Origin: Alphaproteobacteria bacterium
GTDB taxonomy: Bacteria > Pseudomonadota > Alphaproteobacteria > MPNO01 > UBA830
Assembly: GCA_965243135.1 (NCBI GenBank)
Contig: OZ251539.1
Span: 4,832,001 to 4,896,000, forward strand
DNA length: 64,000 bases
Direction of reading: 5' to 3'
A model generated the notes under the pieces. That model saw nothing but the letters and a program-made list of their open reading frames with translations, had not been told where the DNA came from and did not search any database. This document shows, piece by piece, positions 46,991 through 52,365 of this stretch. The position numbers were made by a program, and so were the translations under genes. Numbering within the stretch: the stretch's first letter is position 1; every line of letters begins with the position of its first letter.

Positions 46991-47083
46991 TGTGTCTCAT
47001 GTAATTGACACAAAAGCGTTTGTGTAAAGCAATTCCGCGATATACGTTACACAATCTGTTTTGCGTCAAATAGACGAGACACA
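46991..47083. promoter_or_regulatory. Nested inverted-repeat operator array upstream of the Fic gene
   Basis: 37-bp imperfect IR arms 46991-47027 and 47047-47083, each holding TTGACRCAAA-N5-TTGTGTAA; includes TTGACA at 47005. Confidence 0.7.
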
Positions 47084-47084
47084 A

Positions 47085-48200
47085 ATGCAACCGTTCAGGC
47101 CGCAAGAGCTCCCGATCAGGGATATCGAATGGGAACCTCTTATCCCGCTGATAGGGCGAGCCAACCGTTCGCTCGCCCTCTATGACGGGATTCTGCATAG
47201 CGTGCCCAACCCCGAAGTCCTGTTGTCTCCGCTCGCGACCCGGGAAGCGGTGCTTTCGTCGCGCATAGAAGGTACGCAGGCAACGCTCTCCGAGGTCCTG
47301 AAATCCGAAGCTGGCGAAGAACCCGAGCACGAAATGCGACGCCAGGACATCGTGGAGATCGTCAACTACCGCCGTGCGCTTCTCCACGGCGAAAAAGCGC
47401 TTGTCGGAAAGCCGTTCAACCTCAACCTGCTGCTGGAGCTTCACTCGATACTCCTCGAAAGCGCGCGCGGCCGAAACATGGGGCGAGGCCGGTTCCGCAA
47501 TGTCCAAAACTGGATCGGCGAATTCGATTCCCCGATCGAGCGAGCCGAGTTCGTCCCGCCGGCCCCGGAGGCTCTGATGCCCGCGCTGGACGCGTGGGAG
47601 AAGCACTACCACGCGGAATCCCCCGACGGCCTCGTCCAAATTGCCGTGATCCACGCCCAGTTCGAAATCATCCACCCCTTCCTCGACGGCAACGGGCGCA
47701 TCGGACGCATCGTGATACCGCTGTTCCTCGCGGAAAAAGGGCTCCTTTCGCGTCCGATGTTCTATCTGTCGTCGTATTTCGAACGGCACAGGGACGAATA
47801 CATAGCAAGGCTGCGCGAGATCAGCCGACGGAGCGACGGCTGGAACCGCTGGATAGGATTCTTTCTGCGCGCAGTCGAAAAGGAAGCGCGAGCGAACGCC
47901 GACAAGGCGAAAGCGATCATCGACCTCTACGCGGATCTGAAGGAGAGGGTGCTGGTTCTCACGCACTCGCAATACGCCATTCCGCTTCTCGACCAGATGT
48001 TCGAGCGCCCGCTGTTCGGAAGCAGGATGATTCGGTTTCCCGACGGCATCGCGCCGAGTCGGCAAGCCGTATCCGGTCTGCTTCGCCAGTTGCGCGACAA
48101 CGGCATACTGGAAGTCGTGCGGGACGCCCGGGGAAGACGCTCGCAAATCCTGGCCTTGGCCGAGCTCATCGACATCTGCGAACGTGAAGAGGCCGTTTAG
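47085..48200 (+). CDS. Fic/DOC protein with probable C-terminal HTH
   Basis: EAVLSSRIEGTQ inhibitory motif, HPFLDGNGRIGR; ATG 47085 preferred over TTG 47061. Confidence 0.9.
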   Translation: MQPFRPQELPIRDIEWEPLIPLIGRANRSLALYDGILHSVPNPEVLLSPLATREAVLSSRIEGTQATLSEVLKSEAGEEPEHEMRRQDIVEIVNYRRALLHGEKALVGKPFNLNLLLELHSILLESARGRNMGRGRFRNVQNWIGEFDSPIERAEFVPPAPEALMPALDAWEKHYHAESPDGLVQIAVIHAQFEIIHPFLDGNGRIGRIVIPLFLAEKGLLSRPMFYLSSYFERHRDEYIARLREISRRSDGWNRWIGFFLRAVEKEARANADKAKAIIDLYADLKERVLVLTHSQYAIPLLDQMFERPLFGSRMIRFPDGIAPSRQAVSGLLRQLRDNGILEVVRDARGRRSQILALAELIDICEREEAV

Positions 48201-48936: not shown

Positions 48937-49197
48937 TCAGCGGCGCTTGTCGAAATACGCGAAGAGTTCCTCGGCGGTCCGGCTGGTTCTGACGTGGCCC
49001 CTCGCTTCTTGGAAGTCCTCGAGGTCGACGATGCCGTCGAGCATGGCCTTCAAGCGTTTTCCTGTTTCGTCGTCGAACCTTTCGGCCGCGAGATCGGCCA
49101 AGAGTTCGCGGCTCGCGGCCCTGAACCCTTCGGCCCGCGCGTCGGAGGCAAGGGCCCTTTCCACGGCTGCGTCGTAATGTTGAGCGAATCCGGTCAT
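48937..49197 (-). CDS. Stand-alone Rpn C-tail cassette 2 (86 aa, 1 heptad)
   Basis: GGAGG RBS then MTGFAQHYDAAVERA..ELFAYFDKRR, paralogous to the tail of 49718-51106. Confidence 0.85.
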   Translation of the reverse strand: MTGFAQHYDAAVERALASDARAEGFRAASRELLADLAAERFDDETGKRLKAMLDGIVDLEDFQEARGHVRTSRTAEELFAYFDKRR

Positions 49198-49285
49198 CGA
49201 TCCTCCAAGTGCGGTCTCGGGGGAGACCAACTCTGCAGCCGGGCGTTTTCGCAGTCCCGCGGTGTCGGCCGGAAAGACGCTCGCT

Positions 49286-49630
49286 TCATCGGCGCTTGTC
49301 GAAATACGCGAAAAGCTCCTGGGCGGTCCGGCTGGTTCTGACGTGGCCCCTCGCTTCTTGGAAGTCCTCGAGGTCGACGATGCCGTCGAGCATGGCCTTC
49401 AAGCGTTCTCCCGCTTCGGCGTCGAATCTTTCGGCCGCGAGATCGGCCAGGAGTTCGCGGCTCAAGGCCCTGAACCCTTCGGCCCGCGCGTCGGATGCCG
49501 CCGCCCGCGCGTCAGATGCCTTTGCTCGCGCGTCGGAGGCTTCGGCCCGTGCGTCGGACGCCTTGGCCCGCGCGTCGGAGGCAAGGGCCCTTTCCACGGC
49601 TGCGTCGTAATGTTGAGCGAATCCGGTCAT
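49286..49630 (-). CDS. Stand-alone Rpn C-tail cassette 1 (114 aa, 5 heptads)
   Basis: GAAGG RBS then the same N- and C-terminal blocks with five RAxASDA units. Confidence 0.85.
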   Translation of the reverse strand: MTGFAQHYDAAVERALASDARAKASDARAEASDARAKASDARAAASDARAEGFRALSRELLADLAAERFDAEAGERLKAMLDGIVDLEDFQEARGHVRTSRTAQELFAYFDKRR

Positions 49631-49717
49631 CGATCCTTCAAGTGCGGTCTCGGGGGAGGCCAACTCTGCAGCCGGGCGTTTTCGCAGTCCCGCGGTGCCG
49701 GCCGGAAAGATGCTTGT

Positions 49718-51106
49718 TCAGTGGCGCTTGTCAAAATATGCGAAAAGCTCCTGGGCGGTCCGGCTGGTCCTGACGTGGGCCGTCGCCTCCTGAAATTGTT
49801 CGGGGTCGACGATGCTGTCGAGCATGGCCTTCAAGCGTTCTCCCGCTTCGGCGTCGAACCTTTCGGCTGCGAGATCGGCCAAGAGTTCGCGGCTTGAGGC
49901 CCTGAACCCCTCGGCCCGTGCGTCGGACGCCTCGGCCCGTGCGTCGGAGGCTTCGGCCCGTGCGTCGGACGCCTTGGCCCTTGCGTCGAAGGCGTCGGCC
50001 CGCGCGTCGGATGCCGCCGCCCGTGCGTCGGAGGCGTTGGCCCTTTCCACGGCCGCATCGTAATGTTGAGCGAATCCGGTCATAAAAGGCACTCCTTTCA
50101 GCGCGGCTTCGGGAAAATGTCTGGCTCCCAGTGCCGCTGTCGTCATGAGAAGATGGCGTAACGGGCGATACTTGTCCAACGGAAGCAGCCTGTCCAGTTC
50201 CTCGGCGGCCCGGAGCGTGTCGGCGCGATCGCCCCGGCACAACCGGAAATAAGCCGCCGCAGGGTTGTCCCTGTAACGGGAATAATCCGTCCGGTGGACA
50301 TCCTGGACAGCGTACCGCACGTGCGGCCTGTGGTGGAAATCCAGCTCGGGCTCCTCCGGCGGATCCGCGAGGTCGTCCGCATCCCCCGTGGCGTTCCATG
50401 GCTGCGTTCCGGTATGGACGACCGTCGTAACGATGGAGGGGATCCGTCCGGTTGGGCCGACGAGCTCCGCATGGTTCTTGCGGATGGTCTGCCACAGCTC
50501 GCTGCGGTAGCAGCCCATGCGTTCCGCCATCCTGTGGTCGACGCCGGACTGGAATTCGACGACGACTACGACGGGCCGGCGGTCCCGCCGCTCCAGAACG
50601 AGAATCATGTCGCTGCGGAGGGTTCGGCTGAGCGCGTGGGAGACGAGTTCGCCGTCGATCCTGCGGATGACCGCATCGTCCGGCACCATGTGAGCAGGCA
50701 GGATCGTCCGCAGCAGGCCTCTCGCCATGACGGGATAACCGAAAGTGAACCGGGCGATCGCGTCGTGAGGATAGCGCCCCGGCATGCTCAGCAACTGCAA
50801 GGGCGTCCGCCCGCGTCCGTCCGGCAGGCCCGGGTTCGCGCCGCGTTCGACGAGAGCGGTGAAGTCCGCGTAGTTCTCGTCGCCGGCGGCGTAGTGAAGC
50901 GGCGAGAACCCCTCGTTGTCCGCGACGTCGAGATCGGCGCCGGCCGCGGCCAGAGCTTCGATGGCGGCCGTGTACCCGCAATCGACGGCGTGGTGAAGGA
51001 GCCTTCGACCGTCCGGTTCGACCGGATCGTTCAGCCGGTGGAACAGCTCCACGATGCTTTCCGGCGAACCTGTCCTGACGGCGTCGGCGAGCGTTCGTTC
51101 GTTCAT
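49718..51106 (-). CDS. Ankyrin-repeat + Rpn (PD-(D/E)XK, Transposase_31-like) fusion protein
   Basis: GRRLLHHA..GADLD..G.SPLHYAA..GANP...GRTPL; then HDAIAR, SDMIL, VEFQSGVDHRMAERMGCY, VVHTGTQPW; internal AAAGGAG RBS with ATG at 50083. Confidence 0.88.
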   Translation of the reverse strand: MNERTLADAVRTGSPESIVELFHRLNDPVEPDGRRLLHHAVDCGYTAAIEALAAAGADLDVADNEGFSPLHYAAGDENYADFTALVERGANPGLPDGRGRTPLQLLSMPGRYPHDAIARFTFGYPVMARGLLRTILPAHMVPDDAVIRRIDGELVSHALSRTLRSDMILVLERRDRRPVVVVVEFQSGVDHRMAERMGCYRSELWQTIRKNHAELVGPTGRIPSIVTTVVHTGTQPWNATGDADDLADPPEEPELDFHHRPHVRYAVQDVHRTDYSRYRDNPAAAYFRLCRGDRADTLRAAEELDRLLPLDKYRPLRHLLMTTAALGARHFPEAALKGVPFMTGFAQHYDAAVERANASDARAAASDARADAFDARAKASDARAEASDARAEASDARAEGFRASSRELLADLAAERFDAEAGERLKAMLDSIVDPEQFQEATAHVRTSRTAQELFAYFDKRH

Positions 51107-52365
51107 TTCGTCGTCTCCTTGCGTTGTCTTTCCGACCCGGCCCCTGCCGTCTCCGGCGTCGCCCGCCCGCCGCCACCCCGTTTTGGCAAGCCGACTGCGT
51201 TCCCCTTTATACCATCGTTCTCCGTTTTACCATAGCGTGGATTGCCGCGTCCAGCTGAAATCGACGGACGCGCGAATTTCTGCTTCCGCGAGCGCGCGTC
51301 TTCCCCCGCCAATCTCGCGACCTTCTTCATCACCGTCGGCAACGCGTGATCCTCCAGCCTGCGGCACCAGACGCCTTCTATGCCGTCCGTCCGAGGCACG
51401 TGCGCCGCCAATACGGAAAGCTCCAGCCGGAAATGGGTGAAAGCGTGGCGCACGATTCCGTCGACCGGGCGCCAGTCCGCTTCGACCGGCGCTTCCTTCT
51501 CGGCGGCGGCGCGGGACCACCCCTCCTCGCGCCACGCGGTGGATGGAACCTCCATCAACCCGCCCAACAGGCCGTTTTCGGGCCGGCGGCGAAGAAGCAC
51601 GTCTCCATCCGGCGACGTGATCCAGAACGCGACCCCTCGCCGCGTCGGGAGTTCCGGTTTGGGGGGCCTGCGCGGCAGCGCCGCGGCGTCGCCCCGGGCA
51701 TGCGCGGCGCACGCTTCCTTCAGGGGGCAGACGGAGCAGGCAGGCGTTCCCGGCGCGCAAACCGTCGCCCCGAGATCCATGACGGCCTGCGCGTAGTCCC
51801 CGCAGCGGCTTTCCGGCGTCAGCGACGCCGCCATGTCGCGCAGAATCCTCTTCGCCGCCGGCAACGGCGCGTCGACCGCGAACAGCCGGGCCATGACGCG
51901 CTCCACGTTGCCGTCGACCGGCGTCGACCGGCGTTCGAACGCGATGGCCGCGATCGCGGCGGCGGTGTAGGGACCGATGCCCGGCAACGCTCGCAGATCT
52001 TCCTCGCGATCGGGAAACGCGCCGAGATCGACGACCGACATCGCGCATTTGTGGAGGTTCCGCGCCCGCGCGTAGTATCCGAGCCCCGCCCAGGCGTGCA
52101 GAACCTCGTCGAGGCTCGCGGCGGCGAGATCTCGGACGGTGGGCCACCGCCGAATGAACGTCTCGTAATAGCGCGCCACGGCGGCGGCCGTCGTCTGCTG
52201 CAGCATCACTTCGCTGAGCCATACCGCGTAGGGATCGGGCCGAATGCCCGGCGGAGCACGCCAGGGAAGGACGCGGCGCTTCCGGTCATACCAGGCGAGC
52301 AGCGCCCGCGCGCAATCTTCCGTTGCCCGGGGCGAGCCCGTCTCGCGCGTAAGTTGCTGATTCAC
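51103..52365 (-). CDS. mutY: A/G-specific adenine glycosylase with a C-terminal extension
   Basis: LPWR..PYAVWLSEVMLQQT, WAGLGYYARARNL, LPGIGPYTA, VDGNVER, C-x6-C-x2-C-x5-C, HAFTHF. Confidence 0.95.
   Translation of the reverse strand: MNQQLTRETGSPRATEDCARALLAWYDRKRRVLPWRAPPGIRPDPYAVWLSEVMLQQTTAAAVARYYETFIRRWPTVRDLAAASLDEVLHAWAGLGYYARARNLHKCAMSVVDLGAFPDREEDLRALPGIGPYTAAAIAAIAFERRSTPVDGNVERVMARLFAVDAPLPAAKRILRDMAASLTPESRCGDYAQAVMDLGATVCAPGTPACSVCPLKEACAAHARGDAAALPRRPPKPELPTRRGVAFWITSPDGDVLLRRRPENGLLGGLMEVPSTAWREEGWSRAAAEKEAPVEADWRPVDGIVRHAFTHFRLELSVLAAHVPRTDGIEGVWCRRLEDHALPTVMKKVARLAGEDARSRKQKFARPSISAGRGNPRYGKTENDGIKGNAVGLPKRGGGGRATPETAGAGSERQRKETTK

Follow-up and report, generated by a model that had tools for sequence, protein, structure and literature searches.

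An ankyrin-fused Rpn-type nuclease gene followed by two free-standing copies of its own C-terminal tail in an alphaproteobacterial genome

The stretch of DNA analysed here, referred to as the window, comprises 64,000 nt of the genome of an Alphaproteobacteria bacterium (assembly GCA_965243135.1, contig OZ251539.1, positions 4,832,001 to 4,896,000). At window positions 48937..51106 it holds locus A, which consists of a gene for an ankyrin-fused nuclease of the Rpn type and, downstream on the same strand, two small genes (cassettes 1 and 2) that re-encode the C-terminal tail of that nuclease. The locus is a member of a kind already described, namely an Rpn gene with a free-standing tail copy of the RpnSs type. 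New here are two serial copies at four loci, a heptad or octad repeat in the tails, unequal repeat numbers within one locus, the ankyrin fusion and tails that fall outside Pfam DUF4351, the family named by Zhong et al. 2023 (PMC10400941) for free-standing RpnS genes. No paper reporting these new points was found in a literature search, though the supplementary dataset of Zhong et al. may list multi-copy cases. On balance, and with modest confidence, we take the cassettes to be additional antitoxins that are expressed and bind the tail of the full-length protein, RpnL, in a toxin-antitoxin or defence module of the Rpn type.

The rpnL-like gene (49718..51106, minus strand) encodes 462 aa, to which open reading frame (ORF) and Pfam analysis assign ankyrin repeats, a PD-(D/E)XK (Transposase_31) nuclease domain and the tail. 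Five Pfam ankyrin families match the N-terminus at residues 7-105 (50792..51088, minus strand), with Ank_2 matching residues 7-95 (E 2.6e-10). Residues 113-281 (50264..50770, minus strand), which carry an RSD ... EFQS motif, match Transposase_31 (PF04754) with E 9.9e-10 and 38.8 bits against a cut-off of 21. An earlier note on this DNA had named the gene an Rpn/YhgA-like nuclease, and the hidden Markov model search bears this out. The RSD ... EFQS pattern is common to the canonical Rpn genes of the source genome. In a 14-sequence alignment of the family, D166, E184 and F185 do not vary, and position 186 is Q in 11 members and R in the other three; such acidic and E-x-Q residues form the active-site motif of Rpn nucleases. 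The start codon of rpn, at 51106, has AAGGAG 9 nt upstream. In the full-length structure model, the ankyrin part (residues 11-70) has a predicted local distance difference test score (pLDDT) of 87-93, and the tail helix spans residues 344-416, after a low-confidence linker at 326-357. Judged by its sequence, the gene is a member of a rare ankyrin-fused Rpn/YhgA-like subfamily, with predicted nuclease activity and toxicity.

The final 121 codons of rpn open at an in-frame internal ATG at 50083 and would yield an RpnS-type product with six ASDARAx heptads (49718..50083, minus strand), as delimited by the internal ATG and the alignment. This ATG is preceded by AAAGGAG plus 8 nt (50084..50098, minus strand), a putative internal ribosome-binding site (RBS). 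The internal Met is nearly invariant (at least 90%) in the 14-sequence alignment, and GAAGGA or AAGGAG lies 8-9 nt ahead of it in all four ankyrin-Rpn paralogues of the genome. Downstream, on the minus strand, spacer 1 (49631..49717, 87 nt), whose final ~30 nt repeat the codons before the internal ATG and include the RBS GAAGGA, leads to cassette 1 (49286..49630), a free-standing tail gene of 114 aa with five heptads and 89% amino-acid identity to the tail. Spacer 2 (49198..49285, 88 nt, RBS GGAGGA) leads in turn to cassette 2 (48937..49197), which has 86 aa, a single heptad and 86% amino-acid identity to the tail. The two spacers, both defined by sequence alignment, are nearly identical to each other. 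A repeat search recovered a 300-nt unit three times, with identities of 77%, 100% and 85% and spacings of 349 and 432 nt.

The three tails of locus A differ in length only by 7- and 35-residue gaps within the ASDARAx repeat, which starts ~16 residues past the internal Met, inside the long first helix. Tandem Repeats Finder reports the 21-nt period with 6.4 copies (79% matches) in the rpn tail (49909..50043, minus strand) and again with 4.8 copies (77% matches), far beyond chance. The copies also differ in C-terminal residues (DSIVDPEQFQEATA versus DGIVDLEDFQEARG). Most of this anatomy had been described in the earlier note and was recovered as described, including the 121-aa tail opening at 50083 behind AAAGGAG, the two downstream ORFs with their own RBS and near-identical 87- and 88-nt spacers, the heptad numbers of 6, 5 and 1 and the C-terminal differences. 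The published model of an antitoxin made from an internal start, invoked in the same place, fits a nearly invariant Met followed by repeats in a long helix. The note had erred in placing the start of the copies precisely at the internal ATG. Among the copies, DNA homology extends ~30 nt 5' of the ATG, across the RBS-bearing codons P-E-[A/T]-A-L-[E/K]-G, and the copied unit is therefore the RBS, the tail and ~55 nt of 3' flank.

The cassettes are probably co-transcribed with rpn. A signal scan detected no sigma-70-like promoter at the locus A array and no terminator between its units; the single terminator-like match lies within the rpn gene and overlaps the internal RBS. The spacers fold no better than shuffles (z 0.10 for spacer 1 and 0.24 for spacer 2). 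The TGA of the neighbouring mutY gene overlaps the ATG of rpn (ATGA), and rpn may therefore share a transcript with mutY.

Codon comparisons indicate that the cassettes are under purifying selection. By the Nei-Gojobori method, comparing 114 codons of the tail and cassette 1 gives omega 0.12, from 30.5 synonymous and 15.5 non-synonymous differences, and comparing 86 codons of cassettes 1 and 2 gives omega 0.24, from 7 and 6 differences, respectively. In an ungapped core of 70 codons with ~50 synonymous sites, synonymous divergence (dS) amounts to 0.33-0.36 between the tail and its own cassettes, 0.14 between the two cassettes and 0.27-0.28 between the tail and locus B, a paralogous locus described below. 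The corresponding non-synonymous divergence (dN) is 0.05-0.07 between the tail and its own cassettes, 0.11-0.14 to locus B and 0.11-0.19 to loci B and C. The tail is thus no nearer to its cassettes than to locus B at synonymous sites, and nearer to them by a factor of two to three at non-synonymous sites. These values are suggestive of old duplicates that have been kept alike as proteins. The ATG and a GAAGGA or GGAGGA are both kept in six of the seven free-standing tail copies at loci A-C, counting an orphan copy (Cup) upstream of locus C; the exception is the copy termed C2.

The tails cluster by locus, with each cassette most similar, at the protein level, to the tail of the same locus. The spacers can be aligned among loci A, B and C, where they have the blocks AGCGGGCG, CTTCCGGC and GAAAACGC.CGGC in common. 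Because the spacers are homologous between loci, the layout of rpn plus cassettes arose before the paralogues diverged. The locus B tail is almost identical to its first cassette in the 70-codon core (dS 0.02) and differs from it in repeat number; exchange or re-duplication between tail and cassette therefore occurs. There is no clear mosaic at locus A, where a three-way comparison of sites finds the tail to be the odd one out at 36 sites, with the other patterns at 9 and 5.

The source genome has 16 Transposase_31 matches, among them four ankyrin-Rpn paralogues (loci A-D) with RpnL tails of 121, 93, 72 and 103 aa. Three of these loci (A, B and C) share the arrangement of rpn plus two tail genes with a single canonical Rpn locus. 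At locus B (2.73 Mb), a nuclease tail of 93 aa is followed by tail genes of 86 and 107 aa; behind the second of them (B2) comes a third unit that no longer has a start. The nuclease tail of locus C (5.98 Mb) is 72 aa long and lacks heptads, and a 72-aa cassette follows; the third copy there, C2, reads AAG for ATG, contains a different 7-aa duplication, has a spacer of only 19 nt and is followed by a truncated unit start. Upstream of locus C (5976402-5979405), a dead rpn fragment with an in-frame stop precedes the intact 72-aa orphan tail gene Cup, after which comes another truncated unit start. A 379-aa transposase-like ORF, insertion-sequence-like in character, lies between this orphan copy and the intact locus C, and the upstream fragment looks like an older array split by insertion. 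At locus D (2.16 Mb, 2157800-2160064), no cassette follows the gene.

The canonical Rpn locus with the same layout (genome positions 6100048-6102243) encodes a 375-aa Rpn without ankyrin repeats, followed by tail ORFs of 163 and 143 aa; the repeats at this 6.10-Mb locus are ~8, 6 and ~3.5 units of an 8-aa type (EGREMGLT). Homology between the paralogous loci begins at the rpn ATG and ends a few bases past the stop of the last cassette. These limits agree with the description of rpn genes by Zhong et al. (PMC10400941) as lacking defined element ends.

Other duplications and substitutions were seen at the rpn genes of this genome. The locus B paralogue (2732052-2733767) has gained two extra ankyrin repeats from a 99-nt tandem duplication, with direct repeats 89% identical, and repeat expansion therefore acts on the N-terminal domain too. 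A perfect 110-nt tandem duplication (100% identity) is found at 2730915-2731134, ~220 nt downstream of the last locus B cassette. In the locus D branch, to which the database proteins P0028 and P0029 belong, the E-F-Q motif reads E-F-R, and this branch may be a nuclease-dead or altered member of the family. A whole canonical rpn is duplicated in tandem at 165790-168293 (1321 nt, 90% identity), with a frameshift in the second copy and unequal numbers of 8-aa repeats in the two.

The three-copy array is real and not an assembly artefact. Base differences of 10-15% among the three copies, and the dS of 0.33-0.36 between tail and cassettes, argue against one. The source genome is a single 6.1-Mb contig. 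Four sequencing runs were also compared; their contigs are short and broken within the repeats, and none bridges the whole array. Short contigs of run X1 match the copy-specific parts of all three copies with 0 differences; this run is possibly the source sample and therefore gives no independent support. Joints in the run contigs are mostly paralogue cross-mapping, as in one case where 11 letters at the joint match locus B. The runs that hold the locus include sponge metagenomes, and one of them, X5, yields a 1109-nt piece with 7 differences; no RNA run is among those listed for the locus.

The AlphaFold2 model of cassette 1, made from a 19-sequence alignment, has a pLDDT of 90.7 and consists of a helix at residues 3-68 and three short helices. 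The C-terminal 55 columns of the tail match the canonical Rpn tails of the source genome (hhalign probability 94.3%, E 9.8e-8). Foldseek returned no match in the PDB at E <= 0.001, the VIA-align fold search returned generic coiled coils only (best Z 6.9), and solved structures searched by sequence, with the tail profile and with a canonical Rpn of the genome as queries, gave chance-level matches only. Among 14 relatives from a profile search that were scanned with Pfam, P0068 and P0081 have Transposase_31 in front of the tail. P0058, which matches the tail profile with E 4.2e-12, reaches 25.8 bits with Pfam DUF4351, over the cut-off of 25, which P0059 and P0065 narrowly miss.

A model of the 121-aa tail in complex with cassette 1 obtained a score of 0.68, and the best of three controls 0.00. 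Among solved complexes 116 of 157 attain that mark, and among mismatched pairs 2 of 215; these counts apply only roughly to a complex built from author-made alignments. The three runs share at least 98% of the contacts, and the pLDDT of the partner is at least 86. Contacts are shifted by exactly 7 residues (1:60 with 2:53, and 1:67 with 2:60), so the modelled helices are parallel, their register holds from the C-terminal domain onwards, and the additional heptad protrudes N-terminally. The modelling thus supports parallel coiled-coil pairing between a free tail and that of RpnL.

The tail was found in none of 60 relatives, including four genomes of the same genus, and in none of 400 genomes sampled from the class. 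Related DNA gave no match in collections of genome contigs, metagenome contigs or viral contigs, nor, by tblastn, in plasmids. A collection of 5.8 billion proteins contains ~20 ankyrin-Rpn relatives (P0023-P0043) and 18 tail-only proteins on other contigs. Fifteen of those 18 have exactly 72+7n residues (72, 79, 86, 93, 100 or 107) and, by inspection, begin at the same Met as the internal start of locus A; the suggestion of change in 21-bp steps made in the earlier note is supported by these lengths. The contigs of P0006 and P0018 are equal in size, and likewise those of P0008 and P0012, a hint of two tails per locus. In P0020 and P0021 a second heptad type, SNRELMA, is expanded.

A profile search with the tail among 1.84 billion representatives yielded 34 proteins with E <= 0.001. 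Of 32 distant tail relatives, 17 (P0056, P0058, P0059, P0061-P0067, P0069, P0070, P0072, P0076, P0078, P0079 and P0086) combine two or three tail domains in a single polypeptide, and no nuclease domain was detected in the 11 of these 17 that were put through a Pfam scan. Reiteration of the Rpn tail is therefore a wider habit, with separate genes here and fusions there. No paper on such reiteration was found in the literature searched.

Studies of the published Rpn systems provide a framework for these observations. Zhong et al. (PMC10400941) showed Rpn nucleases to be toxic, and RpnS, made from an internal start, to bind and block RpnL. A 4-aa repeat in the first helix varies among strains and sets specificity, and in Escherichia coli RpnC a mismatch of one such repeat abolishes neutralisation. 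They list free-standing downstream tail copies, one each, as rpnESs (= ypaA), rpnCSs, rpnFSs and rpnP1Ss; these RpnSs copies cluster with their own upstream tail, one of them is expressed, and they can vanish through fusion to the rpn N-terminal domain (PMC10400941). A commentary by Koonin (PMC10400984) adds that regulation may gain flexibility from a second copy of RpnS, and points out that repeat variation blocks trans inhibition between rpn copies.

In the reading of the cassettes as extra antitoxins, RpnL (462 aa) would be a PD-(D/E)XK DNA nuclease, and its final 121 residues would be a pairing module, made of one long Ala-rich heptad helix and a small helical domain related to canonical Rpn tails. 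Three sources would supply the module without the nuclease, namely the internal ATG (RpnS) and each of the two downstream genes (RpnSs type). Free tails would bind the RpnL tail as a parallel coiled coil whose anchor is the C-terminal domain, and this pairing would keep the nuclease inactive until a trigger, presumably phage infection. Since the repeat is a true heptad, shorter copies would stay in register and only the interface would shorten; the 6-, 5- and 1-heptad products may represent a graded antitoxin set rather than strictly matched ones. The SoFic-type defence gene next door was counted in favour of this mechanism. The earlier note had already taken the array for extra antitoxins, and this stands as the best reading; as a kind it is not new, given the free-standing downstream copies of Zhong et al. 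2023.

Several observations weigh against the antitoxin reading. If the mismatch rule of RpnC applied here, cassettes with five and one repeats should not neutralise an RpnL with six, and differences in repeat number and C-terminal residues within one locus suit a donor set rather than a strictly matched antitoxin. The 462-aa protein stays below the cut-off of TIGR01784, the NCBIfam Rpn model (12.7 against 52.1 bits, E 0.084), and because the score is so far under, it is to be regarded as a divergent Rpn branch. No tail of the source genome has a direct DUF4351 match in Pfam, and the RpnAS structure 7TH0 was returned neither by the two fold searches nor by the sequence search. The distance from RBS to ATG in the cassettes is short (3-4 nt), and the loss of the ATG in C2 implies that not every copy is kept as a gene. 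Moreover, the dS and dN contrasts have a small basis, the complex was built from alignments of our own making, and two long Ala-rich helices could come out paired in any structure model.

The suitability of the copies as donors leads to the main rival, to which we give a rather low probability: the cassettes could mainly be a reservoir, their expression being secondary. Recombination with the expressed tail would then change RpnL and its internal antitoxin in one step, by unequal crossing-over (deleting 432 or 781 bp) or gene conversion, and would bring a new heptad number and C-terminal sequence, for example in escape from a tail mimic made by a phage. Zhong et al. (PMC10400941) suggest that RpnL itself may promote such recombination, and the near-identical cores with unequal repeat numbers at locus B mean that sequence does move. 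In run X5, a 200-nt contig of a related strain has a cassette start connected directly to a later heptad, equivalent to 63 nt (3 heptads) fewer, and is a hint only. Silent donors, however, need no start codon or RBS, yet six of the seven free-standing copies have retained both. There was no recent exchange at locus A, as seen in the dS of its tail to the cassettes and in the pattern of 36 versus 9 and 5 sites; the heptad units are only 77-79% alike, and slippage should therefore be slow; and the joints in the run contigs are largely paralogue cross-mapping. A speculative idea that combines both functions, and that we regard as unlikely, is that tail-gene arrays are a device for switching specificity. 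One recombination would re-key toxin and antitoxin, the expressed cassettes would protect the cell meanwhile, the heptad period would let unequal partners pair, and the multi-tail proteins would be fused forms.

Decay after tandem duplication must also be considered, since decayed pieces do exist: the start-less unit after B2, the truncated starts after C2 and Cup, the AAG in C2 and the dead rpn fragment. The rpn loci are known from Zhong et al. to duplicate in tandem, and the 165.8-kb locus has its frameshifted second copy. That the cassettes are functionless by-products of such duplication, via the repeats or the nuclease, and are slowly decaying is nevertheless quite improbable in our view. 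The omega of 0.24 between the cassettes, with 7 of the 13 differences synonymous against ~23% expected, speaks against it, as do a dS of 0.33-0.36 to the tail without any stop or frameshift in either locus A cassette, a layout kept at four loci and the tail-only proteins on other contigs. We assign a very low probability to the proposal that the cassettes guard against other Rpn toxins, be it the three paralogues or incoming mobile elements, and not against the neighbouring gene. The number of Transposase_31 matches in the genome, 16 with four ankyrin-Rpn paralogues, would give such immunity its targets, and because repeat variation blocks trans inhibition (PMC10400984), extra tails could widen coverage. 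Immunity to paralogues had been one suggestion of the earlier note, and it is disfavoured by the lengths: the cassettes have 114 and 86 aa, the other RpnL tails of the genome 93, 72 and 103 aa and that of locus A 121 aa, none as long as either cassette. Each cassette is also closest to its own-locus tail, and the tail was not found in any of the 60 relatives or 400 class genomes, nor in the viral contigs and plasmids searched. Taken together, the reading as expressed extra antitoxins remains the one we favour.

The array is situated between a dienelactone hydrolase gene and mutY, and together with the adjoining SoFic-type gene forms a small defence cluster. That gene, a defence candidate given for context only, has Fic domains and lies downstream of the array, at 47061..48200 on the plus strand (PADLOC SoFic E 1.9e-106 over the whole length; Pfam Fic_N and Fic). 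The mutY frame (51103-52365, minus strand) runs ~70 codons past the NUDIX_4 domain, in low-complexity sequence. In four genomes of the same genus the order mutY-dciA-dsbA is conserved and the other side is not; the insertion boundary is not definable because that other flank is unconserved.

The genome offers a natural series, in which one nuclease comes with tails of 6, 5 and 1 repeats and the design is repeated at four loci. Such a series allows asking whether repeat number is a lock and key or an affinity dial, and whether the extra tails are a toxin buffer or spare parts. It also allows asking whether the ankyrin domain is a new sensor for an Rpn nuclease.

Arrays of an expressed gene and partial copies of it are known from other bacteria. 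In Neisseria, the expressed gene pilE is accompanied by the silent cassettes pilS, which are differing partial copies of its variable end. The present locus likewise has one full gene, then differing partial copies of the variable end of that gene; unlike pilS, each cassette at this locus is a complete small gene that has its own start codon and RBS. The tandem arrays of whole rpn genes exemplified by Parabacteroides (Fig. S1B of Zhong et al.) are similar in being direct duplications without inverted repeats or target-site duplications, and they differ in that here only the RBS, the tail and the 3' flank are reiterated, not the whole gene.

The likeness to the L-S pairs of RpnA, RpnB and RpnC lies in the PD-(D/E)XK nuclease, the variable C-terminal domain and the internal in-frame start with an RBS. 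As in those proteins, the repeats begin 8-20 residues after the Met in a long first helix, and pairing through that helix is predicted here by the structure model. RpnAS (7TH0) is a compact bundle of 49 residues, unlike the heptad coiled coil of up to ~66 residues predicted for the present tails. The closest counterparts are the RpnSs genes of E. coli. Where these come singly, the present locus has two copies in series, and sister loci hold remnants of a third; the repeat measures 7 aa (8 aa at the canonical locus) instead of 4 aa; repeat numbers are unequal at a single locus (6, 5 and 1); and the nuclease has N-terminal ankyrin repeats, with tails that have no direct DUF4351 match. In both cases, a separate small gene on the same strand, just 3' of rpn, encodes the tail of that very gene and carries its variable repeat, and the cassettes of locus A, like the RpnSs copies, are closest to their own upstream tail (dN 0.05-0.07).

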